Origin: a virus
Lineage: Duplodnaviria; Heunggongvirae; Uroviricota; Caudoviricetes
Direction: 5' to 3' (one strand)
Virus record (IMG/VR): IMGVR_UViG_3300043470_002422
Length of the DNA: 64,000 bases
Both the position numbers and the translations under genes were made by a program. Positions 38,303 to 62,184 of this stretch are shown one piece after another; within the stretch, counting starts at the first letter, position 1; every line of letters begins with the position of its first letter. The notes beneath the pieces are model-generated. The model saw only the letters and a list, made by a program, of their open reading frames with translations, ran no database searches and was not told the DNA's origin.

Positions 38303-38308
38303 TTCGTT

Positions 38309-38321: not shown

Positions 38322-38340
38322 ATAAAAATTACTCCCTTAA

Positions 38341-39453: not shown

Positions 39454-39460
39454 TTAATAA

Positions 39461-39991: not shown

Positions 39992-39996
39992 TACCT

Positions 39997-42309: not shown

Positions 42310-42319
42310 TAGCTAGAAA

Positions 42320-43873
42320 TTATACTAAACCTTTATCTTTCATTCCACCTTTTACCATCATTGCTGCTTCAATTCTAAGCTTTCCTTCCGGTGTATCTTT
42401 AATTTTTAGTGTTTCTTCGTTTACTCCAAATTCAGGATATTTTTCTTTGATTCTAGCATAAACCCATGATAGGATTTCAAGATTGCTTAAACCTTGGTAG
42501 TATTTCATGATATTGAATAGATCCTGATCTGTTGCTTTTCCTCCTGACATTTCTTCAGCTTTTCTTAAAGCCATTTCAAATACTCCATAAGCTACTGAAG
42601 AGAAATCTGCTCCTTTTGAAAGTGGTTTAGCTTTTTCTGGATTCTTAACAATATCTTCCAAATCTCTATCTGAAATTCTTCTAATAACATCAAGATAAGC
42701 TTTTAATTTACCTGCCGCTGATGGACCGATAGCATCTGAGTAGATGTTGTAGATCGTATCTGTTGGTAGGTCTCTCCAATTTGTAGCTCCCTCGTCTTCC
42801 ATTTCATCCTTAAGAGATGCTGCTGCATCTGTCCAAGATCTAGGGGTTGGGAATTTAAGAGTTGCTTTTTCTGTATCTAAGTAGTGGAATAATTCTGGAT
42901 TTCTTTCTACGAATCCAACAATTTCTGGTTCGAAATCCCCTGGTTTTGATTTAGCCCATTTAGACCAAGATTCAACGTCAGGAACAAAGTTAACGATATT
43001 GAATCTGTCTGCCATAGCAAAGTCAAATTCTGCAACTTCTCCAGATCCGCTAACGTCTTCTGGTCTGTTACCAGCTGCTACGATAACCCATTTATCAGGT
43101 AATTGATAAGTTCCAACTCTACCCATTTGAACGAACTGCATGATAGCATTCAAAATATATTTGTTTGCTCTGTTCATCTCGTCCATGAATATAAATCCAC
43201 CTTTACCTTCTGGTCCATTGTCCGTAGGTAAAACGATAGGAGGATTTGATCTTGTTATTCCTTTACCTGCAGAAATTAATCTTCCTTCTTCTCCATATTT
43301 AGGTTCTTCAATATCAACAACTTTAGGTATTCCTAAAAAGTCTTCCGGTGACATAAATTGCAAGTCTAAGTTAAGCATAGGAACTCCGGCTGCTTGAGCT
43401 GCTTGACCAACGATTTGGGTTTTTCCTATACCTGGAGCTCCGTAGATGAAGATAGGTTTTGCTCTACCTCCTCTTTGTTTAGATCTGTAAAGTTTACCTA
43501 ACATGCTCTTAAGTTCAGTAGCGTCCACGTTTCTAACTGTTTGATCTTCTCCTGTATATTCCAGAGGAACTTGAGCTTCATCTAGGTCAGATATTAAAGA
43601 CTCATTGACAGGATTCATCTTTGCAAATTCTGTTCCTTTATATAGATTATTAATCTGAGAAACTATATTTCCGTTTGCTGGGTCAAAATAAGTAACTGAA
43701 GGTGTTCCTTTTTTTGGACCTGCAGGAATCATTTTGATAATACCATCTTTGATAGCCTTTGCGATTCTAGCTATCCATCCACCGGCTTTAGAGAGAAAAT
43801 CTCCAAATCTTGATTCGTTTGTTGTGCTTCTGTTGTTTACATAATCATCGAAGCTAAATACTCTTTTTCCCAT
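42320..43873 (-). CDS. MoxR-like AAA+ ATPase (AAA_5)
   Basis: Walker A GAPGIGKT and Walker B IFMDEMNRA. First gene of the minus-strand operon. Confidence 0.7.
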   Translation of the reverse strand: MGKRVFSFDDYVNNRSTTNESRFGDFLSKAGGWIARIAKAIKDGIIKMIPAGPKKGTPSVTYFDPANGNIVSQINNLYKGTEFAKMNPVNESLISDLDEAQVPLEYTGEDQTVRNVDATELKSMLGKLYRSKQRGGRAKPIFIYGAPGIGKTQIVGQAAQAAGVPMLNLDLQFMSPEDFLGIPKVVDIEEPKYGEEGRLISAGKGITRSNPPIVLPTDNGPEGKGGFIFMDEMNRANKYILNAIMQFVQMGRVGTYQLPDKWVIVAAGNRPEDVSGSGEVAEFDFAMADRFNIVNFVPDVESWSKWAKSKPGDFEPEIVGFVERNPELFHYLDTEKATLKFPTPRSWTDAAASLKDEMEDEGATNWRDLPTDTIYNIYSDAIGPSAAGKLKAYLDVIRRISDRDLEDIVKNPEKAKPLSKGADFSSVAYGVFEMALRKAEEMSGGKATDQDLFNIMKYYQGLSNLEILSWVYARIKEKYPEFGVNEETLKIKDTPEGKLRIEAAMMVKGGMKDKGLV

Positions 43874-43905
43874 TTTGGTTTTATTGATTTTTTAATTTTT
43901 AATTT

Positions 43906-43917
43906 GGGATATATATC
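43906..43917. promoter_or_regulatory. Palindromic class B motif GGGATATATATC in a divergent intergenic region (bidirectional promoter candidate)
   Basis: Reads as the class B motif on both strands, between minus gene 42320-43873 and plus gene 43936. Confidence 0.5.
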
Positions 43918-43935
43918 AACAAACAAAAACGAATT

Positions 43936-44328
43936 ATGAAAAACATTAAATTTTTTGAGGACTTTAATTCCGAAGTTCCATCCCAAGAAATCCACGAAGG
44001 ACACGGAGAAATGCAGAACTACATGTTCTTTCAAAATCTTCACACGCTTAAAAATGCAATTGAAGAATTGATTGAATTAGATCCTGTTAAAGTCGATGGT
44101 ATTCTTGCAGACGGTCACGGATGGGCTTTAGATCACATTGCTACATCAGTAGATGACGTTGAGGAGGTTTATCACTTCTTATCTAACTCTATTGAAATGG
44201 GACATGAAGGGGAAGAACACGGGGAAGACCACGAAGAAGGTCACGAAGAAATGGGGATGGAAATCCAAGTTTCACCAGACGAGGTAGAAGTTGAAACTGA
44301 AGACGAAGACGAAGAAGACGAAGACTAA
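43936..44328 (+). CDS. acidic His/Glu-rich protein with a CTS-like leader (MKNIKFFEDF)
   Basis: Leader matches the family. C-terminal HEGEEHGEDHEEGHEE and poly-acidic tail. Confidence 0.55.
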   Translation: MKNIKFFEDFNSEVPSQEIHEGHGEMQNYMFFQNLHTLKNAIEELIELDPVKVDGILADGHGWALDHIATSVDDVEEVYHFLSNSIEMGHEGEEHGEDHEEGHEEMGMEIQVSPDEVEVETEDEDEEDED

Positions 44329-44334
44329 TTAAAA

Positions 44335-45219
44335 ATGCCAGATCAGCCAAGCATACTAGGGGATGGAAACATCCAAGTTAAATATGGTCCTGAGATGGAA
44401 AATATTTACCCCTTTCTTACCACATTATCTGGTGAGAAAAGGGTTCTCTTTATTACCACTAGCAATCGTGGTGAATACATTTCAAGCAAGGGAGAAAAAC
44501 CAAAATCGACTAGACTCGCAGAGCACTTAGCAGATCTTCTAAAAGAAAAAGGAGTAGAGGTAGTAACAATGGATGCTGCCAAACTTAAAATCTACAATTG
44601 TCTTGGATGTGTTAGTGAGCTGAAGGGGAATATGTGTGGATCTCCTAAATCTAAATTAAAGGATCCTGAAAAAAATCCCCATGGTCATTTGAAATGCTGG
44701 GCCTCTCTGGATCATAAAGACGACGAATTATGGAAAATAGCAAATGAATTGTATAACTCTGATGCTGTTATATTCTTTGCTTCCAACAGATGGGGAAATC
44801 CAAATGCAATTTATCAAAAATTAATCGAAAGACTTGACTGGATAGAAAGCTCTTATACAACATATAATGGCCAAAATACAGTTAAAAATAAAAAAGCAGG
44901 AATGGTTCTGCTAGGCCAAAATTGGAGAGTTCAAGAATCTTTAGAGGTTCAGTATCACGTTTTGAATTTCTTCGGATTTGAAACACCCGAAGAACTATTT
45001 ATGGGATGGCAATTCACTAGAGATACAGACGACGAAGAACAAAGATCGTACCAGGAATCTTCAAGTTCTTTTGAACAATCTTGGGGGATGGAAATTCCAA
45101 ACAAAGAAGAAACCATTAAAAAAGAAGGTGGTTTGGTTAAAGAATCCACCGAGAGTAAATTTACTAACGTCAAGGTTTCAGACTTTAGCAGTTTTATATC
45201 TAAATTAAACTGGAAATAA
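44335..45219 (+). CDS. flavodoxin-like NAD(P)H-dependent FMN reductase / iron-sulfur-flavoprotein-like protein
   Basis: RVLFITTSNRGEY and CLGC...C motifs. Confidence 0.5.
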   Translation: MPDQPSILGDGNIQVKYGPEMENIYPFLTTLSGEKRVLFITTSNRGEYISSKGEKPKSTRLAEHLADLLKEKGVEVVTMDAAKLKIYNCLGCVSELKGNMCGSPKSKLKDPEKNPHGHLKCWASLDHKDDELWKIANELYNSDAVIFFASNRWGNPNAIYQKLIERLDWIESSYTTYNGQNTVKNKKAGMVLLGQNWRVQESLEVQYHVLNFFGFETPEELFMGWQFTRDTDDEEQRSYQESSSSFEQSWGMEIPNKEETIKKEGGLVKESTESKFTNVKVSDFSSFISKLNWK

Positions 45220-45420
45220 ATGATCAGAAAAGATACTCATATCTTTAAGGTCAAAGTCGACGGAAGTGAGGATCCTCACATCATCAAAGACATTTATATT
45301 ACTGAACCTGGGCATATTCTAGTTTCAGTTTACAACGAAAAAAAGAAGGTGTGTACTAATTACACCGTGTCTAAAATTCAGGAAGTTCTTCCTGACAAAA
45401 TCAAAATTATTAAGAATTAA
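45220..45420 (+). CDS. small hypothetical protein
   Basis: ORF only. Confidence 0.4.
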   Translation: MIRKDTHIFKVKVDGSEDPHIIKDIYITEPGHILVSVYNEKKKVCTNYTVSKIQEVLPDKIKIIKN

Positions 45421-46175
45421 AGATCTGGTAAACCACCAATCTTTTTAGCTCTATTCTTATAGAGAGTGTAGATTTCTTGTTTCTTGTTAGCAGGAACAAT
45501 TCCTTTAGCTATTCTATCATTTAAGAATTTGATGATCATTTCTTGAAAAGGTCTTTTTCTAGTTTTTGCCTCTGCATAGATTCCATGTAGATTAGCATCA
45601 ACCTCATCTTTTAGTTTATAGTACTTATAATAGTTTTCTGGATTTGATTGGATTTTAATCCTCTGAGCATAATTTCTCTTCATTGCCTTAGCAGGAATAG
45701 TATTCCATCCTCTCTGGGTTAAATGCTCTATCTCATGTCTGATTAAATTTCTCAACTCTGGTGCAAGTTCTACATAACATTGAGGTTCAGTAGCAGGATT
45801 TACAGTAAGTTCAATATAGAGAATTGCTGGGTCCTCGTCTGCATTACCGTCCAGAATAAAAGATTCGGTGTATGTAGGAGCTTCGTCCCTTACGATAACC
45901 AATTTAACAAAGACGTCAAGATTTGTACCCGGATCTAAATAGTTTCCAACGTCCAAGAATTGCATGTCGTCTATTAGAGTTTCAAAACTTGGAACATCGT
46001 CTTTTTCGGTGTACCTAATTTTTACTCCTTCATATTCACCATTTGGTGTATTACTATCTTTTATGAGTTTCATAGCATCGGCTGAAATTTGACCAACTAA
46101 TCTGTCATACTTTCCTTCGAAAAGAAAACCCTCAGATTCGGAAATAAAATCAGCAAAAGACTTAGTGAAACTCAT
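45417..46175 (-). CDS. hypothetical protein
   Basis: Minus-strand ORF in an operon with the next two genes. Confidence 0.5.
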   Translation of the reverse strand: MSFTKSFADFISESEGFLFEGKYDRLVGQISADAMKLIKDSNTPNGEYEGVKIRYTEKDDVPSFETLIDDMQFLDVGNYLDPGTNLDVFVKLVIVRDEAPTYTESFILDGNADEDPAILYIELTVNPATEPQCYVELAPELRNLIRHEIEHLTQRGWNTIPAKAMKRNYAQRIKIQSNPENYYKYYKLKDEVDANLHGIYAEAKTRKRPFQEMIIKFLNDRIAKGIVPANKKQEIYTLYKNRAKKIGGLPDL

Positions 46176-46587
46176 CCAATTTTTTAATTTTAAAAATTAA
46201 AGATTCCATGGCTCCCGGATATTTTCCGTTGTCGCTAGATCTCTCTGGATATTCGGTTAAATAAGGATCTTCTAATTTCACTTTCTTACCTTTATGATTA
46301 GAAACGGTTTTATCCTCGTAGTAAAGAAGATCTAAATCCATTAGGGATCCAAGCATTTTATCAACTTCAAAATCTTCTTCTTCTAAACCGGTTAGATTTA
46401 TAAACATTTCTATGGCATATTTCGGATCTATCCAACCCATCCCAGAAGTAACTATATCAATGATATTATCTGTAGCGGATTTAGGATCCATAGATTCGTT
46501 CAAAAACTCACCATATTCTTTAATATTGATTCCCATTTTTATAAAAGTTTTTTTGCTTCTTCGAAATCTTCTGCAGTTAAATTCCAT
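46162..46587 (-). CDS. hypothetical protein
   Basis: Overlaps its neighbours by a few codons. Confidence 0.5.
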   Translation of the reverse strand: MEFNCRRFRRSKKTFIKMGINIKEYGEFLNESMDPKSATDNIIDIVTSGMGWIDPKYAIEMFINLTGLEEEDFEVDKMLGSLMDLDLLYYEDKTVSNHKGKKVKLEDPYLTEYPERSSDNGKYPGAMESLIFKIKKLDEFH

Positions 46588-47285
46588 CCAGCTATTTTTT
46601 CTTTGATGAATTTCTTAGCTTCTGGATATGTTGCGTCAGTGTTATCTTTTAAATATGCTAACAATTTTTCTCTAATCGCCGGATGAATTCCTTCAGATTC
46701 TAAAATTTCTTCCGGAAACTCAAATTCTAAGCTTTCGGTTGTCAATTTAATTTCTGATAAAATCTTTTTCAATTCCTCCTGGACTTTTATTTTATCTCTT
46801 CTAGATGCTCCTCCTTGACCGATGAAAACATTAAATTCTTCGATCATATCATCGGTTAATTCCTCATCCAGTTCAACTAATGGTTTTTCTGAATTTTCCC
46901 AATCGTCTGTTCCAAATCCTATTTCCATCACCGGAACGTCGTTAGCAGCAGCTTCTATTCCCATTGAATCTGGATCTTGGTATTCTTGAGCATCTTCGTC
47001 CCAAATCTTGTAATTTTCCTCGAACTCCGGAGAGGTTGAATCAAAATAGAAAATGTAGTTTTTACCTGTTTTTTGATCTTTTAATGTTGCAAACTCAAGA
47101 AAATCTGTAGATGTTAATTTTAAGTTGTGCTTGGAGGGATTGATTCCTCTAAGATCCTCAACTTCTCTATAATCATCTTCTCTGTACCCGGGAGGGAGGT
47201 TTCCGGATGGAGAGGTAGTTACACCAAATAAGTCTGCCTCGTTATTTTTTAGATGAAATTCATCGAAAGATAAAATTTTTGCCAT
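46539..47285 (-). CDS. hypothetical acidic protein
   Basis: Class B motif on the minus strand (47302-47314) upstream of its ATG. Confidence 0.5.
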   Translation of the reverse strand: MAKILSFDEFHLKNNEADLFGVTTSPSGNLPPGYREDDYREVEDLRGINPSKHNLKLTSTDFLEFATLKDQKTGKNYIFYFDSTSPEFEENYKIWDEDAQEYQDPDSMGIEAAANDVPVMEIGFGTDDWENSEKPLVELDEELTDDMIEEFNVFIGQGGASRRDKIKVQEELKKILSEIKLTTESLEFEFPEEILESEGIHPAIREKLLAYLKDNTDATYPEAKKFIKEKIAGWNLTAEDFEEAKKLL

Positions 47286-47301
47286 TGATTTAAATTAATT
47301 T

Positions 47302-47314
47302 GTTTATATATCCC
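47302..47314 (-). promoter_or_regulatory. Class B motif (GGGATATATAAAC on the minus strand)
   Basis: Reverse complement of GTTTATATATCCC. Confidence 0.5.
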
Positions 47315-47454
47315 AGTCACATCAAAATCTTTTGTTTGAAATATTTCAATTATTTTTTAATTTTAAGAAACTTTTCTATAAAAACCATCTAAAAGAATTA
47401 CTTATATTCCCTGGAGAAGTATCTATTATTATCTAGGAGCCGCCGTTAAGGTCT

Positions 47455-47487
47455 CAACAAAAAACCCAAACTCGAAAGTCTGGGTTT
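47455..47487 (-). terminator. Rho-independent terminator on the minus strand
   Basis: Minus strand reads AAACCCAGACT-TTCG-AGTTTGGGTTT followed by TTTTTTG. Confidence 0.6.
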
Positions 47488-47505
47488 ACATAAGGTCTAT
47501 TCTTC

Positions 47506-48081
47506 TTATTTTAAACTTAGAAGGTATTTAGTTTGATCTATCAGACTCAAAATTTCCTGAATTATATTAAAGATTTCCGGATCTTTATTTTCATCGAATG
47601 CAGAGATACATTCTTCTCTGTAACAAACATCTAAATGAGCTATGAATCTAGGAAGTCCGTCTGGGGATTCTGGAGAATCGTAGTTATCTAATTTTAATGT
47701 TCTTTCCGAATCATTAAAAACGGGTCTACCATATTTTCCCATGATTGATTCTATCAAAGTATCTGAGATTTCAATAAACTCTTCAAAGAAATTATCTAAA
47801 GCTTTGTGCTCGGAATATGAATTGGTCTGCCAATGCAAAAGTTTTGCTTGAGTCATATTTTGAAGAACCCTACTTGCAACCTGGCTTGTTTTAGAGCTAG
47901 GGGTTTGGGTCTTATCTGGAGCTGCACTAGGAGTTTTGGGAATACTAATAGGTTTTAGAGGGATAATTTCCGCATCAGTCTCTACCTCCGGACCTTTGGG
48001 TTGTTCTGGGTTATATTTTCTTTTACCTGCAGGTTCTATAATTTCACCAAAGGCACTTAGATTTAATACGTTGTCCGCCAT
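47506..48081 (-). CDS. hypothetical protein
   Basis: Likely ATG start at 48081 (MADNVLNL); the ORF track extends to a TTG at 48111. Class B-like GATATATAAC sits upstream on the minus strand. Confidence 0.5.
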   Translation of the reverse strand: MADNVLNLSAFGEIIEPAGKRKYNPEQPKGPEVETDAEIIPLKPISIPKTPSAAPDKTQTPSSKTSQVASRVLQNMTQAKLLHWQTNSYSEHKALDNFFEEFIEISDTLIESIMGKYGRPVFNDSERTLKLDNYDSPESPDGLPRFIAHLDVCYREECISAFDENKDPEIFNIIQEILSLIDQTKYLLSLK

Positions 48082-48127
48082 ATATTTTTTTTCTTTTTTG
48101 TTATATATCAAGTACGACCGAAATTTT

Positions 48128-48141
48128 TTTAAAAATGCCGT
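48128..48141 (+). promoter_or_regulatory. Class A variant GCCGTATATTAAAT in a divergent promoter region
   Basis: Upstream of ATG 48155. The minus-strand class B-like motif at 48101-48113 is adjacent. Confidence 0.45.
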
Positions 48142-48154
48142 ATATTAAATAGAA

Positions 48155-48964: not shown

Positions 48965-51094
48965 ATGACTGAAAACAATATAATTGGAGAGAACTTATTG
49001 GGAGATATCTTATACACTCCTCCTAAAATTTCAATGGGACCTATCGATGACGATGATATTGATGATGTTCCAAGCTACAAATCTAATCCAACCTCTTCAA
49101 CCACTCCTGCCCTAGATTCTTTTAGCAGGGATTTAACAGCTCTAGCTGCAAAGGGAGAACTTGATCCAATTGTAGGAAGAGATTCTGAGATCGAAAGAGT
49201 TTCTCAAATTCTAGGTCGTAGGAAAAAGAACAATCCAGTTCTAATAGGGGAACCCGGGGTTGGTAAATCAGCAATTGCCGAAGGACTAGCACTTAGAATT
49301 TTCCAAAGAAAGGTTTCTAGAAATCTACTAAATAAGAGAGTAGTTAGTTTGGATATGGGTCTAATTGTTGCCGGAACTAAATACAGGGGTCAGTTTGAAG
49401 AGAGAATGAAGTCCATTATGGATGAGCTAAGAAAAAATCCAGATGTAATTATTTTCATCGATGAATTGCACACTCTAGTTGGTGCCGGTGGTTCATCAGG
49501 ATCTTTGGATGCTTCTAACATGGTAAAACCTGCACTAGCAAGAGGGGAATTTCAATGTGTTGGAGCAACAACTCTAAATGAATATAGACAGTATATCGAG
49601 AAAGACGGAGCACTAGAAAGAAGATTTCAAAAAGTTATCATTGAAGCTCCAACTGCAGACGAGACAATTATAATTCTAAACAATATCAAGGCTAAGTACG
49701 AGGATCATCATAATGTTCAATACACTGACGATGCTATCATCAATTGTGTTAAGTTAACAGAAAGATACATTACCGACAGAAACTTCCCAGACAAAGCTCT
49801 AGATGCTTTAGACGAAGCGGGTAGCAGATCTCAATTAACCCAAGTTAAGGTTCCTGATGCATTGGTTAATTTAGAGAAGAATCTAGAGAAAACTACAGAG
49901 GAGAAAAAGAAGTGTGTTACCAAACAGGACTATGAAGGAGCTGCCAAATATAGAGATCTGGAAAGAAAGATTAAAGCTGGCATCGAATCGGAAACTAAAG
50001 CCTGGGAGCAAAAGCTAAAAGAGAAGAAGAAAATCGTAGACGGTGAAAAAGTTGCTGAAGTAGTTTCTTTGATGACTGGGATTCCTCTACAAAAGATCAG
50101 TCAGGACGAAAACGAAAGACTTGCTAAAATGGCTGAAGCTTTAAGAGATAGAGTTATTGGACAAAATGAAGCAGTTGAAAAAATATCAAAGGCAATTTTA
50201 AGAAATAGAATCGGTTTAAAAGACCCAAATCGTCCAATCGGATCATTTGTTTTTCTAGGACCTACCGGAGTTGGTAAAACCCAATTGGCTAAGGAATTGG
50301 CTAAAATGGTATTCGGTGATGCCGATGCAATGATTAGAGTTGATATGTCCGAGTACATGGAGAAATTCAATTCAACCAAATTGATTGGAGCTCCTCCAGG
50401 ATATGTTGGACACGAAGATGGTGGTCAATTAACAGAGAAAGTTAGAAGAAAGCCATATTCAGTAGTTCTATTTGACGAGATTGAAAAGGCCCATCCGGAT
50501 ATTTTCAACTCTCTATTACAAATTCTAGACGAGGGTATGATTACCGATGGATTAGGAAGAAAGATTAATTTTAAAAATTGTTTAATCATCTTGACTTCTA
50601 ACGTTGGTCAAAGAAAGGCTGCCGAATTTGGAGGAGGTGTAGGATTCAAATCTTTAGATAAGAGCAATGTGGAAAAAGAATCAAAGATCACGATCAGAAA
50701 AGAATTGGAAAAAACTTTCTCTCCGGAATTTCTAAACAGAATAGATGAAATTATAAACTTTAATTCTCTAACTCAAGATGATCTAATTAAGATTATAGAC
50801 GTTGAAATTAAAAAGATGACTCCGAGATTTGAAGATCTAGGGTTTAAATTAGTCATCTCTAAGGATCTAAAAGAAAAGATAGCAGAAAGAGGATATGACC
50901 CCAAATTTGGAGCAAGACCTCTGAAAAGACTTCTTCAAAAATATATCGAAGACACTATTGCAGAGCTCTTTATCCAAAAGAAAGTTGAATCAGGTTCTAA
51001 GATTACTCTATCCCTAGATTCTTCCAAAGATGCTGAGATCGAACCCCCAGTAAAGGTAAGAATCACAAATCCAAAAAAGGGCTCAGAAGAGTAA
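48965..51094 (+). CDS. ClpC/ClpA-family double-AAA+ unfoldase with a UVR-like insertion and no N-terminal Clp_N domain
   Basis: D1 Walker A GEPGVGKS and D2 Walker A GPTGVGKT. A UVR-like KKCVTKQDYEGAAKYRDLERKIK lies between them. Confidence 0.7.
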   Translation: MTENNIIGENLLGDILYTPPKISMGPIDDDDIDDVPSYKSNPTSSTTPALDSFSRDLTALAAKGELDPIVGRDSEIERVSQILGRRKKNNPVLIGEPGVGKSAIAEGLALRIFQRKVSRNLLNKRVVSLDMGLIVAGTKYRGQFEERMKSIMDELRKNPDVIIFIDELHTLVGAGGSSGSLDASNMVKPALARGEFQCVGATTLNEYRQYIEKDGALERRFQKVIIEAPTADETIIILNNIKAKYEDHHNVQYTDDAIINCVKLTERYITDRNFPDKALDALDEAGSRSQLTQVKVPDALVNLEKNLEKTTEEKKKCVTKQDYEGAAKYRDLERKIKAGIESETKAWEQKLKEKKKIVDGEKVAEVVSLMTGIPLQKISQDENERLAKMAEALRDRVIGQNEAVEKISKAILRNRIGLKDPNRPIGSFVFLGPTGVGKTQLAKELAKMVFGDADAMIRVDMSEYMEKFNSTKLIGAPPGYVGHEDGGQLTEKVRRKPYSVVLFDEIEKAHPDIFNSLLQILDEGMITDGLGRKINFKNCLIILTSNVGQRKAAEFGGGVGFKSLDKSNVEKESKITIRKELEKTFSPEFLNRIDEIINFNSLTQDDLIKIIDVEIKKMTPRFEDLGFKLVISKDLKEKIAERGYDPKFGARPLKRLLQKYIEDTIAELFIQKKVESGSKITLSLDSSKDAEIEPPVKVRITNPKKGSEE

Positions 51095-51104
51095 TATATA
51101 GAGC

Positions 51105-51299
51105 ATGATTTTTATAGATTTAAAGAAGGAGAAATCTCTGGATTCAGCTTTAAAGAAGCTAAAAAATAAATTTTCTGAACGTAAGACAAAAGACGAACTT
51201 AACGAGAGAAGAGAATTCACCAAACCATCTGTGAGAAGAAGAAATCAAATAAGAGACGCAAAGTATAGGCAATCTATCCGTACGTCCGAGATAAATTAA
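51105..51299 (+). CDS. rpsU: phage-encoded ribosomal protein bS21 homolog
   Basis: LDSALKKLKNKFSERKTKDELNERREFTKPSVRRRNQIRDA compares to E. coli bS21 [41 protein letters not shown]. Confidence 0.6.
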   Translation: MIFIDLKKEKSLDSALKKLKNKFSERKTKDELNERREFTKPSVRRRNQIRDAKYRQSIRTSEIN

Positions 51300-51301
51300 A
51301 T

Positions 51302-52168
51302 TTGAAAAATATAATTCTATATGAGGAATTTTCCGACGGATTGAACCGTTTGAGATCGATTTTCGAATCTCTAGAATCAAATCCTATTGCTAACATAGAG
51401 GTTTATAACCGAAATATGGAAGCATCCTATCCGGATAAATTATTCTTTTTAGATATTATAAATCCGGATGTTATCGTAGATTTTGGGTGTGCAGACGGAA
51501 CGATCCTTTCCAAGATGAAGGAGAAAAATCCAGATGTTAAATTGATAGGATACGATCTTAGTAAAGCTATGCTTGCTAAAGCAAGAGCTAAACTAGGACC
51601 AGACGTTTTATTAACCGATTCTTGGAGTGAGGTTCAATCTGAATTGGAATCTTATGATAAACCAGCTCTTGTATTATCTTCGGTAATTCACGAAGTTTAT
51701 TCTTATTCTCATCCTAAAGAAGTTAAAAAATTCTGGGAGGATAGAGTATTTGGTGGAGACTTTAAATGGATAGTAATCAGAGACATGATTCCTTCTGTTG
51801 AAATGAGTAGAAAAGAAGCATCCGAATTCCAGGACGATGTTGACAAAGTTAAATCTGCGGCAGATCCAAAATACTTAAAGTCTTACGAAGAAAAGTGGGA
51901 TGATATTGGAAGCAGCTATAAATTCTTAGCTCACTTTTTACTAAAATATAAATTCACAGATAACTGGACTAGAGAAGTAGCAGAAAACTATCTTCCTCTT
52001 TCTCTTGAAACTCTATACAAGAAAATACCTCCGGGATATGAAATTATTTTTGAAGATAATTTTGTTCTTCCCTATCTAAAAAAAGAAGTCAAAAAGGACT
52101 TCGATGTAGACATTAAGCACACTACACATGCTAAAATGATTATAGAAAATAAAAATTTTGAAAAATGA
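51302..52168 (+). CDS. class I SAM-dependent methyltransferase with a CTS-like leader (MKNIILYEEF)
   Basis: Motif I VVDFGCADGT. Confidence 0.5.
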   Translation: MKNIILYEEFSDGLNRLRSIFESLESNPIANIEVYNRNMEASYPDKLFFLDIINPDVIVDFGCADGTILSKMKEKNPDVKLIGYDLSKAMLAKARAKLGPDVLLTDSWSEVQSELESYDKPALVLSSVIHEVYSYSHPKEVKKFWEDRVFGGDFKWIVIRDMIPSVEMSRKEASEFQDDVDKVKSAADPKYLKSYEEKWDDIGSSYKFLAHFLLKYKFTDNWTREVAENYLPLSLETLYKKIPPGYEIIFEDNFVLPYLKKEVKKDFDVDIKHTTHAKMIIENKNFEK

Positions 52169-52464
52169 AAAATCTAGCACTCTATGAATCTTTCACCGAA
52201 TCTTTAAACGAATCAAGAACAAGAAAGAATCTAATGCACGAACTTCTTAACATTCCAGAAGATAAAAAAATCTCTGACATTTATAAGAGCGGTAAGAAAT
52301 TAGCAGAAGAATTGGTTGCAGCAATCAAGAAGAGCAACATAGTTCCAGAAAAAGAGGTTCAGAAAAAAGCTACCTCGATGCTAGCCTTTGTTGGTAACTG
52401 GCCTAATGATCCTAAGAATTCCGTTTTTGATGTTGCTCTGAGACACGTCAAATCTCTCTTTTAA
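52165..52464 (+). CDS. small protein with a CTS-like leader (MKNLALYESF)
   Basis: Leader only. Confidence 0.45.
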   Translation: MKNLALYESFTESLNESRTRKNLMHELLNIPEDKKISDIYKSGKKLAEELVAAIKKSNIVPEKEVQKKATSMLAFVGNWPNDPKNSVFDVALRHVKSLF

Positions 52465-52499
52465 GAAACTTATCTTTCTTTTCCTGGTATAAATCAAAT

Positions 52500-53255
52500 A
52501 TGATCAAAGATTCAGACATAGTTTTTGTTACCCCTTCTTTATCCACTAAATGGATAAATTATCAACAGAGTATATTAAAATCAAATTTTCCTGAAAGTTC
52601 CTTCATTGTCGTCGACGGAAGAGGGGGATGGCCAAAGTCCTGGTTTCTTTGGATAAATGAGGTTAAGAAAACAAATCAAAAATGGTATATCCATATCGAT
52701 GAAGATTGCTTCATCGAAAATAAATCTGAAGTAATTAAACTCCTTGAAAAAATGGAAATGGAAGATATTGGGATTTCTGCTATTTCTGAAGCATATTGTC
52801 ATTTCAGAGGAAACAATCCAGTAGCTTTCAACTCTTTCTTTTTGGCTGGTAGGGTTGAAGATTTGCAGCATGTCAATTTAGATATTAAAAATATCGATTT
52901 CAAATACGATGGACAAAATTGGAAGAATTCTTTAGGAATTCATTTTAAGAAAGAATATTTGGATGATTTCATATATCCTCACGATAAAATCTGGCCTCAT
53001 GATAATATAGAATCTGAATGCGAACCTTTTTATCTTTTCTGCTGGCTGATGAAGGAGAACAAAATAAAAATTCATTATCTTTACCCTTACTTTGATTCCA
53101 GATTTAAGTCAACCAATCCAAGGATTGAGAAAGATTCTCCTGACATAGCAATTCACATGTGGTACACTAGATTGTGCGACAGTCCTATGGACGTACACGG
53201 TCTTCCTAATAATGAAAGATATCGTAGATTGGAAGATTACCTTAATTCTAAATAA
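52500..53255 (+). CDS. hypothetical protein at the start of the glycosylation cluster
   Basis: ORF only. Confidence 0.45.
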   Translation: MIKDSDIVFVTPSLSTKWINYQQSILKSNFPESSFIVVDGRGGWPKSWFLWINEVKKTNQKWYIHIDEDCFIENKSEVIKLLEKMEMEDIGISAISEAYCHFRGNNPVAFNSFFLAGRVEDLQHVNLDIKNIDFKYDGQNWKNSLGIHFKKEYLDDFIYPHDKIWPHDNIESECEPFYLFCWLMKENKIKIHYLYPYFDSRFKSTNPRIEKDSPDIAIHMWYTRLCDSPMDVHGLPNNERYRRLEDYLNSK

Positions 53256-54096: not shown

Positions 54097-54765
54097 TTAA
54101 ATTTTAACTTTTACGATTCTAGTTTTATCTGAGATCTTCCTTTCTTCTAAGATTTCATATTTTAGAGTTGTTAATCCATCCGAATTTATTTTTTCCATCG
54201 CATTTTTTTGCCCTTCAGGGGAGCTAAATGAGAAATATTTTTTAAGATTCTCGTCATATAAATCTTTGACAATATTTCTTTCGTGAGCTAACGATCTATA
54301 TCTTCCATTTTTCCTAGATGTTGGGATCCCATTTAAAATGCATCTCAACATAACGTCGTCATCCTCTGCTCCCCACCCCCAGTAATCGTTAGAATATCCA
54401 TTTGCCTTGATAAAGGAATGCTTATCGAAAATGGTAACCCCTCCGAAATACTTATGGTAAGGGAGTTTGTATCCAAATTGCTCCGCTTCAGCTGCTAAAT
54501 GGGTTGGATTCGGGGTATAAGTATAATCCGATGTTATTGGTAACATATCAACGTCATGGAAACAATAGTAATCTGCAGAAGGTGATTCAAGTGCTCCGAC
54601 GTTTAATAATTTTCCTCTGTTGAAAGGTTTATCGTCCTGTTCAACAATTACAATCTCGTAATCCAAATCCCTTAAGAATTCTGAATTCTCCATATGGGGA
54701 ACAAATTTTTTTAAATGTTCTTCTCTGTCCCTATATGGAACTATGATAGATAATTTTTTAGACAT
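54097..54765 (-). CDS. beta-1,4-galactosyltransferase-like (GT7 / GT-A) glycosyltransferase
   Basis: FNRGKLLNVG, HDVDMLP and WGWGAEDDD are hallmarks of the beta4GalT family. Confidence 0.6.
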   Translation of the reverse strand: MSKKLSIIVPYRDREEHLKKFVPHMENSEFLRDLDYEIVIVEQDDKPFNRGKLLNVGALESPSADYYCFHDVDMLPITSDYTYTPNPTHLAAEAEQFGYKLPYHKYFGGVTIFDKHSFIKANGYSNDYWGWGAEDDDVMLRCILNGIPTSRKNGRYRSLAHERNIVKDLYDENLKKYFSFSSPEGQKNAMEKINSDGLTTLKYEILEERKISDKTRIVKVKI

Positions 54766-54842
54766 CAGATATTTTAGTTCATACTTTTGTTAAAGTTTCC
54801 GAAACATTATTCTTCTTCCCCGGTATAATTTTAAATTATTCT

Positions 54843-55691
54843 ATGATTTATTTTAGAAGCATCGGCTACATGGGAAGGCTTGGAAATCAGATGTTCCAGC
54901 TTGCTTCAACAGTAGGAATAGCAAAAGAAAGAGGATTTGGTGCCGGAATTCCTATTGAGAATTGCACCAGAAAAATTGGAAGCGGACCAATTGACGTTAA
55001 AACCGGATTACAGACGAATGTTAAGTGCGATCTTTTAGATTGTTTCAATATCCCGTCAAAATATTTAATTCCGTTCAGTGAGGTAAAACCTCAGTACATT
55101 TACTACGAGGGGGATTTTAAATTCAATCCTCAGGTTCTATCTTTGGAACCATATACAGATTTATCTGGATACTTTCAAACCGAGGAATATTTTAAAAAAT
55201 ATAGGGAAGAAATTCTAGAAATCTTTACTTTTAAAAAAGAAGATGAAGAAGAAGCAAGAAATTTTCTATTAGAGAAGGTTCATTCTCTATCATCAAATAA
55301 GAATGTAATTTCTATTCACGTAAGAAGGGGGGATTATACGCTATATCCAAACCATCATCCGGTTTGTTCCGATGACTATTATAAATCTGCAATTGAAAAA
55401 TTCGATCTAAAAAATTCTGTGTTTCTAGTTTTTTCTGACGATATCGAATGGTGCAAGAAAAAATTTGAAGGAGACAGTTTTATATTTTCAGAAACTAACA
55501 ATCCATATGTGGATCTTGCAATTATGACAATGTGTGACCATCACATTATTGCAAACTCTTCTTTTAGCTGGTGGGGTGCCTGGTTAAATAGATCTAAGGA
55601 CAAGAGAGTTATAGCTCCTTCCAGATGGTTTGGTCCTTCTTTACCTAAAGACACGAGTGACATATATTGCGAGGGATGGGAAATAATATGA
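54843..55691 (+). CDS. alpha-1,2-fucosyltransferase (GT11)
   Basis: N-terminal GRLGNQMFQLA and C-terminal HHIIANSSFSWWGAWL motifs. Confidence 0.65.
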   Translation: MIYFRSIGYMGRLGNQMFQLASTVGIAKERGFGAGIPIENCTRKIGSGPIDVKTGLQTNVKCDLLDCFNIPSKYLIPFSEVKPQYIYYEGDFKFNPQVLSLEPYTDLSGYFQTEEYFKKYREEILEIFTFKKEDEEEARNFLLEKVHSLSSNKNVISIHVRRGDYTLYPNHHPVCSDDYYKSAIEKFDLKNSVFLVFSDDIEWCKKKFEGDSFIFSETNNPYVDLAIMTMCDHHIIANSSFSWWGAWLNRSKDKRVIAPSRWFGPSLPKDTSDIYCEGWEII

Positions 55692-56446
55692 GCAACAACT
55701 TCTTTTCCATAACGATAAACACCTTTAATCACGAGAATTGGATAGAGGGATGTCTATACAGCTGTTTAAACCAGGATTATGATAACTTTGAAGTTATCGT
55801 TATAGACGACATTTCAACCGATAAGACTTTTGAGATATGCTCCAGGATACAAAAAGAATTTCCAGGAAAATTAAGAGCTATAAGAAATGAGAATAAAATA
55901 TTCTCGCAGGTCCGAAATATTCTAGAGCTCACTCTTCTTTCTAAGGAAAATTCTATAGTGGTTTCTGTCGATGGGGATGATTGTTTAAAAAACAACCAGG
56001 TTCTAAAAAAACTAAATGAGGTCTATAATTCCGGAGAAGTCTGGATGACCTATGGAAGATATGAAGAATATCCTTATAACGACGTTTCTGGAAGTTATTA
56101 TGCTTACCCAGATCATATAATACAAGGAAATTTATTTAGGGAATACAGATGGATGGCTTCTCATCTAAGAACTTATAGAAGAGAATTGTTTTTGAAAATC
56201 AAGGAAGAGGACTTTAAATTACCCGATGGTGAATGGCTTGACGTAACAGGGGATCAGGCATTTATGCTTCCAATGTTGGAGATGTCAAAAGAGAGAAGCA
56301 GATTTATTCCTGATATTCTTTATGTTTATAACGTAGCTAATCCCACAAGGGACGGAGCAACTAAAGTTCATAGACAAGAAGAGGTAGCAAGATACATTAG
56401 ATCAAAAGAAAAATACACCAGATTAGAAACATTAAATGAAAGATAA
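55688..56446 (+). CDS. GT2-family glycosyltransferase
   Basis: FSITINTFNHE...VIVIDDISTD...VSVDGDD, a GT-A fold with DxD. The ATGA start and stop overlap. Confidence 0.55.
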   Translation: MSNNFFSITINTFNHENWIEGCLYSCLNQDYDNFEVIVIDDISTDKTFEICSRIQKEFPGKLRAIRNENKIFSQVRNILELTLLSKENSIVVSVDGDDCLKNNQVLKKLNEVYNSGEVWMTYGRYEEYPYNDVSGSYYAYPDHIIQGNLFREYRWMASHLRTYRRELFLKIKEEDFKLPDGEWLDVTGDQAFMLPMLEMSKERSRFIPDILYVYNVANPTRDGATKVHRQEEVARYIRSKEKYTRLETLNER

Positions 56447-57131
56447 ATTTTTTATGGCTATTCTTTCTCATAAGGGAAGTAAGCACAGGGATGAACAAAA
56501 AAAACATCTCCTAGAAACAAACAACGGTGATATTATATTCTATTATTTTATAGGAGATTTAAATCTAGACTCGGAATATAAAGTAGACGAAGAGAACAAA
56601 ATAGTCTATCTAAAAGTTCCTGATAACTACGAATCTCTTCCCTTAAAAACACAAGCAGCTGTTTCTTTTGTGAATGAAAATTATTCCGACTCGATTAAAG
56701 GAATGATAAAAACAGACGATGATATAGAACTGGATATCGAAAAGATTTATTCTTGCCTTTCTATTCACGGAGATAAAGATTATTTTGGAATAGTTACACA
56801 GATAACTAACCCTGAAAACGTATCGACCTGGCACATGGGAAAATGTGAATCCGCAGAGATGAATAGAACCCCAGTAAGAGTTCCTCTTTGTACCTATTGT
56901 GGTGGTGGAGGATATTACTTAAGTAAAGAATCTATCTCTAAAATTTCCCAATCAAAGGAAAAATATTCCACCATGGTATTTGAAGACGCAGCTACCGGAT
57001 ACGTTTTAAATTCATTTGGAATCTATCCAACGTTTATTCACATGGGACAGAATGGATTCGATTGGCCTAATATGGTACCTCCTTCTCCTCCAGAATCTAA
57101 GGTTCAAGTCAATCCAATGTTAATAAGATAA
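56436..57131 (+). CDS. Fringe-like / GT31 beta-1,3-glycosyltransferase-like protein
   Basis: KTDDDIELD and CTYCGGGGYYLSKE. Confidence 0.5.
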   Translation: MKDKFFMAILSHKGSKHRDEQKKHLLETNNGDIIFYYFIGDLNLDSEYKVDEENKIVYLKVPDNYESLPLKTQAAVSFVNENYSDSIKGMIKTDDDIELDIEKIYSCLSIHGDKDYFGIVTQITNPENVSTWHMGKCESAEMNRTPVRVPLCTYCGGGGYYLSKESISKISQSKEKYSTMVFEDAATGYVLNSFGIYPTFIHMGQNGFDWPNMVPPSPPESKVQVNPMLIR

Positions 57132-57132
57132 G

Positions 57133-57816
57133 ATGATATCAATTTGTATACCTTGTTACGAGATGCACGGGAGAGGAAAGGATTTTCTAGACTTTAATTT
57201 GGAAAAAATTAAAGAACAGACCTATCAAGACTTTGAAGTTGTAATTTCAGACCACAGCCAAAACGAGGAGATTAAATCTGTATGCGAGAAATATTCATCA
57301 TTGGGTATGGATGTTAAATATTTTAAAAACGAAAATAATAGGGGGAATTCCTCTAGTAATATTAATAATGCAATTTCTAATTCTACTGGTGAAATAATTA
57401 AAATTATTTTCCAGGACGATTTTCTATATCACATTAATTCTCTAAAAGAAATAAGAGATTCTTTTTCTTCTAATGATATAGACTGGCTGGTAACAGCTTC
57501 TTGTCACACTACAGATGGAATTAACTTCGAGAGATTTTATTATCCAAGATATACAGAAGACATTATGACGGGGAATAATTTAATAAGCTCTCCGAGTGTT
57601 TTAAGTTTTAAAAATACCGGAGATGTTTGGTTTGACTCAAATTTAATCTGGCTAATGGACTGCGATATGTACAAAAGACTCTATATGAGATATGGGGATC
57701 CTTTCTATTTAAATCGAATTAATGTTGTTAACAGAACTTGGGAAGGTCAGTATAATAATCACATCCCTTGGGAAAGAAAAAAATGGGAAATAGAATACGG
57801 GAGACATAAATACTAA
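57133..57816 (+). CDS. GT2-family glycosyltransferase
   Basis: ISICIPCYE...EVVISDHSQ...IFQDDF. Confidence 0.5.
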   Translation: MISICIPCYEMHGRGKDFLDFNLEKIKEQTYQDFEVVISDHSQNEEIKSVCEKYSSLGMDVKYFKNENNRGNSSSNINNAISNSTGEIIKIIFQDDFLYHINSLKEIRDSFSSNDIDWLVTASCHTTDGINFERFYYPRYTEDIMTGNNLISSPSVLSFKNTGDVWFDSNLIWLMDCDMYKRLYMRYGDPFYLNRINVVNRTWEGQYNNHIPWERKKWEIEYGRHKY

Positions 57817-57832
57817 TAATATATAAAATAAA

Positions 57833-58396
57833 ATGAATAATTTAGAACAAATTTACCTTAATAAATGCGCTACTGCATTAGACATCAACGAGCATTTACC
57901 TACTTTAAGGAGATACACAGAAGAATGCGACGTTGTTATCGAAATGGGGGTTAGAAGCATAGTTTCAACCTGGGCTTTTTTACTAGGGCAGCCAAAAAAA
58001 TTAATCTCTGTGGACATCGTTCATCCTAAAACTTATATCAATCATGACCCGTCTGGATGCAATTTAGATTTGGTTTATGAAATTGCAGAAGAGAGAGAAA
58101 TTGAATTTGAATTTATAGAGTCAGATACCTTAAAAATGGATCCCATTGAATGTGATTTTTTATTCATCGATACCCTTCATGATTACGATCAACTAAAGGA
58201 AGAATTAAGAATCCATTCGCCTTCTGTTAAAAAATACATAGGCCTTCACGATACAGAAACTTTTGCAATCAAAGGAGAAACCCCAGGAAAAGAAGGAATC
58301 TGGAGAGCAGTGGAGGAATTCCTATCTGAAGGAGAATGGAGAATTGGAGAAAGGTTTACAAACAATAACGGACTTACTATTCTATCTAGGATTTAA
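57833..58396 (+). CDS. class I SAM-dependent methyltransferase (Methyltransf_24-like)
   Basis: VIEMGVRSIVSTWAFL...FIDTLHDYD. Confidence 0.45.
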   Translation: MNNLEQIYLNKCATALDINEHLPTLRRYTEECDVVIEMGVRSIVSTWAFLLGQPKKLISVDIVHPKTYINHDPSGCNLDLVYEIAEEREIEFEFIESDTLKMDPIECDFLFIDTLHDYDQLKEELRIHSPSVKKYIGLHDTETFAIKGETPGKEGIWRAVEEFLSEGEWRIGERFTNNNGLTILSRI

Positions 58397-58418
58397 TGAA
58401 CAACCCCCGAAATAAGAT

Positions 58419-59084
58419 ATGCTTAAACTAGAAAACGTAACTCTCATAGCTTTAACAAGCGTTAGAATCCCTCAGACAATAAAAGCTCTGGAATATAGTT
58501 GCAGGGGAATCCAATTTGGAGATGTTAAATTAGCTTCCGATATAAAACCAGAAAATTTACCTGCTTTCATAAAACATGAGTATACCGAAAGAAGTTCAAA
58601 TATTGATGAGTGGAATTATAATATAATTTATAATCTATCCAAACATATAGAAACAGATTATGCAATTCTCATTCACGATGATGGTTTTATAGTAAATCCG
58701 GAATCTTGGAGGAATGAATTTTTAGAATATGATTACATAGGAGCTCCTTGGGCTTTACCTTCAGATGATTATTCGTACCGTGATATAAATGGAGAAATCG
58801 TTCGCCAGGGAAATAGTGTTTCTCTAAGAAGTAAAAAATTAATAGATATTCCAAATAAATTAAATCTGGAATGGAAGTCTTTCTATGGATTTACAAATGA
58901 AGACGGATTTATATGTGCGCATTATAGGCATAGGTATATAGAAGAAGGATGTAAATTTGCAGACATTGATGTTGCCAAATACTTCTCACACGAAACAATG
59001 ATACCAGAAATAGAAGGAATAAAACCATTTGCATTTCATAGACACTTTGGTACCAATTCGATTTACCCTAATTATGGAAGATAA
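58419..59084 (+). CDS. hypothetical protein (putative glycosyltransferase-associated)
   Basis: ORF within the cluster. Confidence 0.4.
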   Translation: MLKLENVTLIALTSVRIPQTIKALEYSCRGIQFGDVKLASDIKPENLPAFIKHEYTERSSNIDEWNYNIIYNLSKHIETDYAILIHDDGFIVNPESWRNEFLEYDYIGAPWALPSDDYSYRDINGEIVRQGNSVSLRSKKLIDIPNKLNLEWKSFYGFTNEDGFICAHYRHRYIEEGCKFADIDVAKYFSHETMIPEIEGIKPFAFHRHFGTNSIYPNYGR

Positions 59085-61436: not shown

Positions 61437-61439
61437 ATT

Positions 61440-62180: not shown

Positions 62181-62184
62181 AAAT

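Follow-up and report, generated by a model that had tools for sequence, protein, structure and literature searches.

Uncultivated huge phages of freshwater Bacteroidota, assigned to clades a to e, carry a gene for the small-subunit ribosomal protein bS21 (Chen et al. 2022, PMC9723584), and bS21-encoding phages mostly infect Bacteroidia (PMC9723584; PMC9976891). In the ribosome, bS21 sits on the platform of the 30S subunit against the 3′ end of the 16S rRNA, and in Bacteroidia it helps to occlude the anti-Shine-Dalgarno (ASD) sequence (PMC7797042; PMC9976891). The 16S 3′ tail is diverted into a pocket made by bS21, bS18 and bS6, so that the ASD is sequestered (PMC7797042), and Tyr54 of bS21, a signature of the Bacteroidetes, stacks on A1534 of the 16S rRNA in Flavobacterium johnsoniae and contributes to keeping the ASD tail off the mRNA (Jha et al. 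2021, PMC7797042). The C-terminal part of the protein is also much less basic in Bacteroidetes than in other phyla (PMC7797042). Ribosomes without bS21, or without its C-terminal region, gain Shine-Dalgarno (SD) recognition and show an altered mRNA preference (PMC7797042; PMC9976891), and the protein is essential in F. johnsoniae (McNutt et al. 2023, PMC9976891). Here we analyse a 64,000-nucleotide stretch of viral DNA (IMG/VR record IMGVR_UViG_3300043470_002422; "the window" hereafter) in which an open reading frame (ORF) of 64 codons, lying directly behind a gene for a ClpC-type unfoldase, encodes a bS21 homologue. We consider it probable, though well short of certain, that this ORF encodes a functional bS21 of the Bacteroidota type, carried by uncultivated huge phages (contigs of at least 400 kb) that infect Bacteroidota. 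Phage bS21 of this kind is already known; the novelty is confined to the lineage and to the position of the gene directly behind the ClpC-type gene.

Judged by its sequence, the ORF is a genuine bS21 homologue over its full length. The 64-residue product contains 11 Lys and 9 Arg against 10 Asp/Glu (isoelectric point 10.4), and its residues 4-56 match positions 2-54 of the 55-position Pfam profile PF01165 Ribosomal_S21 at 41.3 bits (E=1.2e-10; gathering cut-off 27 bits), while the NCBIfam equivalog TIGR00030 S21p is matched at 34.3 bits (cut-off 28.95 bits). A preliminary description of this DNA had read the ORF as bS21 and had named the Pfam comparison as a check; with both curated cut-offs passed and a homologue of full length, that reading stands, and the core motifs quoted for it (ALKKLK and ERREFTKPSVRRR...A) are present and fall on conserved alignment columns. 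PHROG 21469 'ribosomal protein S21' matches weakly (E=0.014). In the PDB, bS21 of F. johnsoniae (7JIL chain z) ranks first, at E=1.8e-8 and with residues 1-61 aligned free of gaps; a 63-residue bS21 (9I5V) ranks second. AlphaFold2, run with 37 lineage sequences, gives a plausible two-helix hairpin with predicted helices at residues 12-37 and 41-63, in keeping with a family of small (about 55-71 residues), strongly basic proteins made of two long helices.

The predicted protein is, furthermore, of the Bacteroidota (putatively ASD-sequestering) type, with both Tyr54 and a short, weakly basic C-terminus present. In an alignment of lineage members, other viral S21, two solved Bacteroidota bS21 and rpsU products of Cytophagales and Saprospiraceae, the positions M1, A15, L16, K40, S42, R46, A52 and Y54 are invariant, and Tyr54 of the window protein aligns with Tyr54 of 7JIL_z (F. 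johnsoniae numbering). Position 54 is Tyr in 84 of the 86 lineage sequences, the remaining two having one His and one Ser. After Tyr54 the window protein continues as RQSIRTSEIN, with a net charge of about +1, and ends at residue 64. The N-terminal half is near-fixed within the lineage (IDLKKEKSLDSALKKLK.KF...K, against a cellular consensus of V.VKENESIDKALKRFKKKFEKTG) and differs from every cellular sequence compared; a divergent N-terminal half is also reported by Chen et al. for their phage bS21 (PMC9723584).

The gene is, to judge from codon comparisons, under strong purifying selection and selectively maintained, and is not a chance reading frame. Between the window and its relative L012 there are 13 synonymous and no non-synonymous differences, the ratio of non-synonymous to synonymous rates (dN/dS) lies at 0.03-0.17 in every comparison with unsaturated dS, and 22 columns are invariant within the lineage. 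Homologues number 85 among 5.8 billion proteins, all of them 56-66 amino acids long, all with PF01165, and ranging from 97% to about 60% identity; 59 blocks of the assembly collection list the window protein in exactly this form. S21 proteins from other contexts in IMG/VR (L009-L011) are 47-48% identical to it, and other viral S21 outside the lineage at most 56%. The features of the window to which we refer are collected in Table 1.

Table 1. Positions of the bS21 gene, its putative expression signals and other features of the 64-kb window.
Feature	Position	Strand	Remarks
bS21 coding sequence	51105..51299	+	ATG (51105) to TAA (51297-51299), 64 codons; Bacteroidota type, Tyr54 present
Promoter-like class-2 motif AATATATAG	51093..51101	+	Overlaps ClpC stop; ends 3 nucleotides before S21 ATG
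Class-2 sites in window	5774, 6608, 7461, 8303, 15416, 34357, 38310, 48626, 51093, 57818; 47304(-), 48101(-), 54087(-)		
Class-1 motif (CCGTATAT) nearest upstream of S21	48138..48145	+	Before RNaseH-like gene at 48155
Class-1 sites in window	1342..48145		21 sites, e.g. 1342, 4454, 4798, 11112, 20959, 27544, 48138
ClpC-type double AAA+ unfoldase without N-terminal adaptor domain	48965..51094	+	Stop codon 51092..51094; Pfam AAA, AAA_lid_9, UVR, AAA_2, ClpB_D2-small
Variable cassette 3′ of S21	51302..53255	+	S-adenosylmethionine-dependent methyltransferase (51302 or 51416..52168; Methyltransf_12/25), 99-residue ORF, 251-residue ORF
Glycosyltransferase / sugar-modification island	54097..64000		Precomputed Pfam on syntenic contigs
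Homologues of PTm1 gp155 (12070..12627) and gp157 (13577..14785)	12070..14785	+	tblastn
1697-residue protein, PKD repeats and C-terminal CHU_C type IX secretion system (T9SS) sorting domain	15814..20907	+	Pfam

Set beside clades a to e of Chen et al., the window lineage is alike in consisting of uncultivated huge phages with a predicted Bacteroidota host, a bS21 of about 60-66 residues and an aromatic residue at position 54; both also have a chaperone ATPase, a DegT aminotransferase, FkbM methyltransferases and sugar- or lipopolysaccharide-type genes. The genomes of Chen et al. measure 293-331 kb and carry 5-25 tRNAs, whereas the related contigs here reach 400-406 kb and the 64-kb window has no tRNA. 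The placement of the gene differs too: in those clades bS21 lies on the reverse strand in the structural module, within about five genes of TerL, the portal, the prohead protease and the major capsid protein, whereas here it is co-directional with its neighbours, behind ClpC and before a glycosyltransferase island, with no structural gene for at least 50 kb upstream or at least 20 kb downstream. Chen et al. 2022 found the bS21 gene of freshwater phages to be transcribed along with late genes (PMC9723584). Of 900 published genomes, about 50 have Clp ATPase families no more than 10 genes away from bS21 (PMC9723584), so the association of ClpC with bS21 is not wholly new.

Other described bS21 systems compare as follows. 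The F. johnsoniae protein (7JIL_z) has the same length of 64 residues, has Tyr54, K40, S42, R46 and A52 in common with the window protein as well as the short, weakly basic C-terminus, and is about 41% identical to it, with Ile55 where the phage protein has Arg. The Pelagibacter phage HTVC008M has a bS21 that is likewise phage-borne and is proposed to replace the host protein (PMC6375957); a passage of PMC9976891 cites its incorporation into Escherichia coli ribosomes (Mizuno et al. 2019). Its host is a marine alphaproteobacterium, however, and its bS21, unlike that of the window, is not of the Tyr54 Bacteroidota type; a tblastn search of phage records with the window bS21 gave no detectable HTVC008M match. 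In Francisella tularensis an alternative bS21 paralogue is reported to alter ribosome composition and hence gene expression (PMC9578407), which makes this case an experimental precedent for ribosome specialisation by bS21, but one of cellular gammaproteobacterial paralogues in an SD-using translation system. Among INPHARED phage records four match the window bS21, three of which are LR756501/LR756503 (735 kb) and LR756502 (642 kb); these are huge phages that likewise encode ClpC-like ATPases, with S21 proteins 37-40% identical to that of the window. The three records are reportedly associated with Al-Shayeb et al. 2020. In LR756502 the S21 and ClpC-like matches lie about 118 kb apart, unlike the adjacency seen here.

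We infer that S21 can be made by read-through from upstream and/or from a phage-specific promoter of its own. The class-2 motif RATATATAR that abuts the gene has 13 copies in the window, where 4.2 ± 1.9 are expected; every copy points at the gene downstream of it and lies either 3-5 or about 20 nucleotides before the ATG. A set of window genes of unknown function has this motif in common with S21. It is retained in diverged relatives, as GATATATAAA-N3-ATG in L004, L119 and L121, and the S21 start in the more distant contig L008 is preceded by AATATATAAAAG-ATG; although the stop codon of ClpC lies elsewhere in the diverged sub-lineages and the spacer there has another sequence, the S21 motif and its spacing are kept. 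Our guess is that the motif may act as a promoter and that the S21 mRNA would be leaderless or nearly so. A similar (A/G)ATATATAA stands before late structural genes of an unrelated freshwater phage contig (L128) and is not clearly present in the Tenacibaculum phage PTm1, for which reason we do not call the S21 motif a late promoter. A terminator scan gave no terminator-like site between ClpC and S21, and a sigma-70 scan gave no enrichment of sigma-70-type sites.

Read-through could begin at the class-1 motif nearest upstream of S21, which may mark the start of a transcription unit that runs through ClpC. This motif, CCGTATAT (consensus gACCGTATATTcTAAt), occurs 18 times in the window, always on the + strand, against 0.84 expected, and its relaxed form CCGTAT[AC]T 21 times on the + strand and once on the - strand; a 20-kb region of small ORFs, which overlaps the left end of the window and extends upstream of it (L123, 1..20393), holds 24 copies. 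In that upstream array the motif appears about once per gene, typically in the arrangement TAA-CCGTATATTCTAAT-ATG (stop, motif, start). The 8-mer ends 4-33 nucleotides before start codons, in many cases exactly 6 nucleotides before the ATG; the longer spacers are CA-rich (acacaacaaccac) or A-rich, and no conserved -35-like sequence accompanies the motif. It looks like a single-element phage promoter giving leaderless or short-leader mRNAs, or it may alternatively play a role at the RNA level.

Within 45 nucleotides upstream of their starts, 17 of the 92 window ORFs have a class-1 motif, 12 have a class-2 motif and 10 more have a looser, TATAAT-like third class; 53 have no motif, and 39 ORFs start within 12 nucleotides of the preceding co-directional gene. 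The preliminary statement that almost all genes start 0-30 nucleotides from a promoter motif was therefore overstated, the figure being 29 of 92 with the two supported motifs and 39 of 92 with the loose third class. The accompanying statement on the SD, which almost all genes were said to lack, is confirmed: an SD 4-mer lies at -20 to -4 in 6 of the 92 ORFs, against 10.9 ± 3.1 at random positions. Such depletion is to be expected of genes translated by Bacteroidota ribosomes, and it hints indirectly that the phage bS21 would keep the 16S 3′ tail in its pocket. As for signals of the cellular kind, the Bacteroidota promoter TAnnTTTG precedes the cellular rpsU genes that we retrieved, and the phage S21 gene is without it; in the loci of Cytophagales and relatives (L102 to L115) cTATATTTGcagccctaa stands about 20 nucleotides before the ATG, corresponding to the Bacteroidota -7 TAnnTTTG element, with no SD. 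Flavobacteriales rpsU is reported to have an extended SD. An SD-based autoregulatory leader of that type is absent before the phage S21, but this gives no useful contrast, since the retrieved rpsU genes of Cytophagales and Saprospiraceae do not have it either.

A Bacteroidota host is supported by several features of the predicted products. The long protein with PKD repeats matches PKD_4 (eight stretches), PKD and, at its C-terminus, CHU_C (E=2.8e-15), and a small ORF of the window carries DUF4884, a Bacteroidota lipoprotein family. The T9SS is restricted to Bacteroidota and close relatives, and the CHU_C and DUF4884 families are characteristic of Bacteroidota. Tyr54 of the bS21 and homologues of genes of PTm1, a Tenacibaculum phage, agree with this assignment. 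So do the nearest cellular S21 proteins among GTDB species representatives, which are all from Bacteroidota at no more than 54% identity (Saprospiraceae 54%; Dawidia, Ohtaekwangia, Cyclobacteriaceae and Fulvivirgaceae 45-48%), in a scan covering genomes that share exact peptide words such as SVRRRNQI. The segment in which the PKD-repeat gene lies has a G+C content of 0.43, above its surroundings, and the protein is perhaps a phage-encoded substrate of the host T9SS, perhaps one that remodels the cell surface.

We propose that bS21 would be made during infection from the phage-specific promoter-like element abutting its start codon and/or by read-through from ClpC, the transcript made from its own element being leaderless or having a leader of a few nucleotides. 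The phage protein would occupy the bS21 site on host 30S subunits, replacing or supplementing the host bS21. Its conserved C-terminal helix would keep the ASD sequestered, which would suit the SD-less phage mRNAs, and its divergent N-terminal half could shift which mRNAs are preferred. The gene itself would be a lineage-specific acquisition with its own expression signal, placed at the border between ClpC and a variable island. Mizuno et al. 2019 (PMC6375957) and Chen et al. 2022 (PMC9723584) put forward this model of replacement and mRNA bias.

Several points weigh against a functional bS21 of a huge Bacteroidota phage. That the product of this gene enters ribosomes, when it is expressed and how it would affect the choice of mRNA are matters of inference. 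The AlphaFold model is only moderately confident (mean predicted local distance difference test score, pLDDT, 76.8), and a Foldseek search of the PDB with it returned a single weak match, to a chain of the Pseudomonas aeruginosa 70S ribosome (7unr_u; E=1.3, template-modelling score 0.43), a result that is uninformative since an isolated two-helix model makes a poor query. The class-2 motif is short and AT-rich, and its promoter role and the leaderless mRNA are guessed from spacing. The scan for cellular S21 sees only genomes with shared exact peptide words, so that the host class cannot be named or ranked. Finally, neither the 64-kb window nor the flanks of related contigs (10 kb; about 30 kb in total) showed a terminase, capsid, portal or tail gene when PHROG and Pfam were applied to essentially all ORFs, as concatenated pseudo-proteins for 0-42 kb, with the precomputed Pfam matches of syntenic contigs covering 40-64 kb and both flanks; in the absence of a terminase, major capsid or portal gene the assignment to a phage is indirect.

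It is possible, but unlikely, that the bS21 homologue acts off the ribosome or indirectly, whether packaged in the virion, as an RNA-binding regulator of phage mRNAs, or as a top-up of supply without changed selectivity. Chen et al. raised virion packaging as a possibility (PMC9723584), bS21 is reported in a non-ribosomal ribonucleoprotein (PMC12054373), and, as bS21 is essential in F. johnsoniae, a phage that stops the expression of host genes would already gain from plain replacement of supply. The conservation of the ribosome-contacting C-terminal helix and of Tyr54 is, on the other hand, what a role on the ribosome predicts, and the N-terminal half, near-invariant in the lineage and unlike all cellular sequences compared, speaks for a specialised function rather than generic supply.

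The gene order around bS21 bears on a second alternative. The product of the upstream gene has 709 residues, of which 43-686 align with 156-798 of Staphylococcus aureus ClpC (phmmer E=1.8e-226); it has the two AAA+ rings, a middle domain of the UVR type and the VGF loop that docks ClpP (GGGVGFKS), and the N-terminal adaptor-binding domain of about 150 residues is missing. The bS21 start follows the ClpC stop by 10 nucleotides, and the order ClpC then S21 is kept in every relative examined, with a spacing of 10-17 nucleotides across the lineage members and S21 identities of 97, 82, 73, 69, 67 and 56%. The slot after S21 is, in the relatives, filled by a methyltransferase or by a Tlde1-domain protein, or is empty. 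Sister IMG/VR contigs (L022 and L023), whose ClpC is 70-71% identical and whose downstream genes are the same, show no trace of S21 or of the cassette on its side, and have a hairpin-plus-T-run terminator after ClpC. More widely, at least 591 IMG/VR stretches encode ClpC relatives at 70% identity or less; among the 80 ClpC-anchored loci fetched from these, none has S21 within 10 kb, and 42 have a TerL homologue 6-9 kb from ClpC. We therefore rejected a coupling of ClpC and S21 as a general rule. A ClpC without the N-domain is apparently a common gene of a large huge-phage family.

This conservation could be taken to mean that the N-domain-less ClpC and bS21 form a ribosome-remodelling module, in which the unfoldase, acting with a ClpP from the host or the phage, would extract or degrade the host bS21 and the phage copy would replace it. 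The adjacency holds in all lineage members, over S21 identities of 56-100%, while the downstream genes vary; the ClpC homologue has kept its ClpP-docking loop and lost its regulatory N-domain; and McNutt et al. [quoted passage not shown] We nevertheless hold such a module to be doubtful in the extreme. ClpC is much older and more widespread than S21 in this phage group, as the counts above bring out, the closest sister contigs pass from ClpC to a terminator without S21, and the two genes are far apart in LR756502; insertion at the edge of a variable region explains the adjacency equally well, and S21 has its own promoter-like motif. The strongest form of the idea is more doubtful still: that the pair is a dedicated ribosome-conversion module, in which a constitutively active unfoldase would strip off or degrade the host bS21 and phage bS21, supplied from a leaderless transcript that begins at the phage-specific ATATATA element, would replace it. 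That ribosomes so converted would favour leaderless phage mRNAs, and those with short CA- or A-rich leaders, over host mRNAs is to be regarded with the same strong doubt. Were it true, it would give a viral ribosomal protein its first concrete mechanism of exchange.

The history of the locus is most simply read as a single acquisition of S21 in this sub-lineage, by insertion where the conserved ClpC gene adjoins a plastic region, followed by retention. The sugar-modification island that makes up the plastic side shows, on syntenic contigs, the families GT7, GT11, GT2, Galactosyl_T, DUF5672, DUF3431, 2-oxoglutarate-Fe(II) oxygenase and DegT aminotransferase. In the window and in L012, L016, L019, L121 and L122 it includes eukaryote-flavoured GT7 beta-1,4-galactosyltransferase, GT11 fucosyltransferase, GT17, GT92 and Exostosin/RXYLT1 genes, as well as FkbM methyltransferases, DegT aminotransferases and epimerases. 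The island is hypervariable, its gene content being unlike even between otherwise near-identical contigs, and assemblies tend to break there; the contig of 399,968 bp stops about 80 bp after S21.

That the window derives from a huge tailed phage of the 400-kb class is very likely, on indirect evidence. Contigs with close S21 relatives measure 406,192 bp (JGI 3300071516 Ga0620986_00291), 399,968 bp (3300071517 Ga0620987_00175) and 399,492 bp; the sample codes concerned are KRAE22-1, GROS21-1, MEHR18-2 and JGI 33000xxxxx, and a lake origin is our guess. The window is densely packed, mostly on the + strand. Two of its genes match, in the same order, gp155 (31% identity, E=2e-16) and gp157 (33%, E=1.8e-60) of the Tenacibaculum jumbo myophage PTm1 (NC_049340), in which gp155 is annotated as a virion structural protein, and the same region matches phrog_2087 (E=2.9e-33). 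A 123-kb IMG/VR viral contig (L008) is syntenic, running from MoxR through ClpC (78% identity) and S21 (56%) to glycosyltransferases. Among the IMG/VR loci L008-L101 a TerL homologue lies within 10 kb in 43 (the 42 ClpC-anchored loci and the S21 locus L009), and the terminases beside the ClpC relatives are of the Terminase_6N type. The preliminary description had called the gene phage-encoded, and this is supported indirectly by the PHROG-type auxiliary genes (NAMPT, the MoxR+DUF2201 module and the ClpC-like ATPase), the small-ORF array with its homing endonuclease, the PTm1 homologues and the syntenic L008. No near-identical DNA exists among GenBank phage records, the only match being one of 557 bp in ClpC, at 73%, to LR756502. 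In a search with the TerL of PTm1, none of the at least 120 matches listed lies on the three contigs of about 400 kb. An abundant cluster of 604-residue TerL (P0158, L128) was considered as the lineage's TerL and rejected: it belongs to an unrelated lineage of smaller phages that has no genes in common with the window and whose 80 IMG/VR contigs include no ClpC-S21 contig.

It is, by the same evidence, very improbable that the window is a Bacteroidota chromosome or plasmid and the ORF an ordinary rpsU or a paralogue of it. The missing capsid, terminase and portal genes, the 400-kb reach of related contigs and the many metabolic genes (NAMPT, MTHFR, adenylosuccinate-synthetase-like, ferritin, glycosyltransferases) would suit a cellular replicon. 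The 64 kb contain, however, no other ribosomal or housekeeping gene and, in tRNA and Rfam scans, no tRNA or Rfam family, and most ORFs are orphans without a Pfam or PHROG match. Upstream of the window, related contigs carry more than 40 small co-oriented ORFs of 50-120 residues that belong to no family, with nearly one CCGTATAT each, and a NUMOD3 homing endonuclease on the opposite strand; S21 lacks the TAnnTTTG promoter, and no cellular S21 was found above 54% identity. The PTm1 homologues, the syntenic viral contig and the 42 ClpC-anchored loci with a terminase homologue within 10 kb likewise speak for a phage. Hardly credible, last, is a giant virus of a eukaryote (Nucleocytoviricota-like) with an acquired bacterial S21, for which the size of about 400 kb and the eukaryote-flavoured GT7, GT11, GT92, Exostosin and RXYLT1 could be cited, against the T9SS sorting domain and Bacteroidota lipoprotein family in the window, the MoxR+DUF2201 and other PHROG families typical of tailed phages, the PTm1 homologues, the ClpC relatives beside Terminase_6N-type TerL in IMG/VR contigs, and a Bacteroidota-specific Tyr54 that would be purposeless in a eukaryotic host.

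The recognisable genes of the window are an auxiliary set typical of very large phages: ferritin and a PRPP-synthetase-like protein beside NAMPT, then NADAR, adenylosuccinate-synthetase-like and two nucleoside deoxyribosyltransferase-like proteins, a nucleotidyltransferase of the CCA-adding type, an RNase T-like exonuclease, a HAD phosphatase, a DNA methyltransferase, MTHFR, an SPFH/Band-7 protein, and the MoxR, DUF2201 and ClpC-like proteins. A cluster for NAD+ and nucleotide salvage comprises 21303..22253 (PRPP-synthetase-like), 27572..29101, 25571..26044, 26548..26892 and 31204..31683, its products being PRPP-synthetase-like, NAMPT, NADAR and two nucleoside 2-deoxyribosyltransferase-like proteins; the start of the first is probably an ATG near 21351, just after a class-1 motif. 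Genes for a MoxR-type AAA+ ATPase, a DUF2201_N metallopeptidase and DUF2201 VWA proteins (40329..43873 on the - strand and 43936 on the + strand) are transcribed divergently from a palindromic GGATATATATC at 43908; the metallopeptidase has a low-complexity (GDKPGDMP)n tract and a KOW motif, and the MoxR+DUF2201 module is common to Bacillus phage G, PA5oct-like and N4-like phages.

A paralogous family with the N-terminus MKHIKLFEDYSDE..L..L..DL..VGL has members at 8315, 9211, 9786, 10451, 38341, 39461, 43936 and 52165, questionably at 5790 and 7475, and possibly at 51302; it has no Pfam or PHROG match, and several of the ORFs that precede its members end in the same peptide (…DLDDVGL*, …GDIGL*). 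The TTG starts at 5679 and 7444 are probably wrong, an ATG at about 5790 and about 7475, after a class-2 motif, fitting better. A diaminopurine (Z) genome is not supported by the predicted products of the window. The 352-residue adenylosuccinate-synthetase-like protein of 24516..25574 (+) matches the PHROG family used for PurZ-type enzymes, and we rejected PurZ for it, its best PDB match being ordinary PurA (E. coli, 2e-28); DatZ was likewise rejected for the HD-domain gene at 11124..11651 (+), whose best PDB matches are RelA/SpoT-type hydrolase domains and whose product is a possible small alarmone hydrolase.

The finding is confirmatory and not surprising in itself: the earlier reading of the ORF as bS21 was correct, and its interest is modest. 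Phage bS21 is the commonest viral ribosomal protein, whose function is not yet demonstrated in a Bacteroidota system. The lineage described here adds a widespread example in which bS21 is decoupled from the structural module, has a start-proximal motif of its own and is fixed beside a ClpC-type unfoldase, so that ClpC, motif and bS21 make up a compact cassette.

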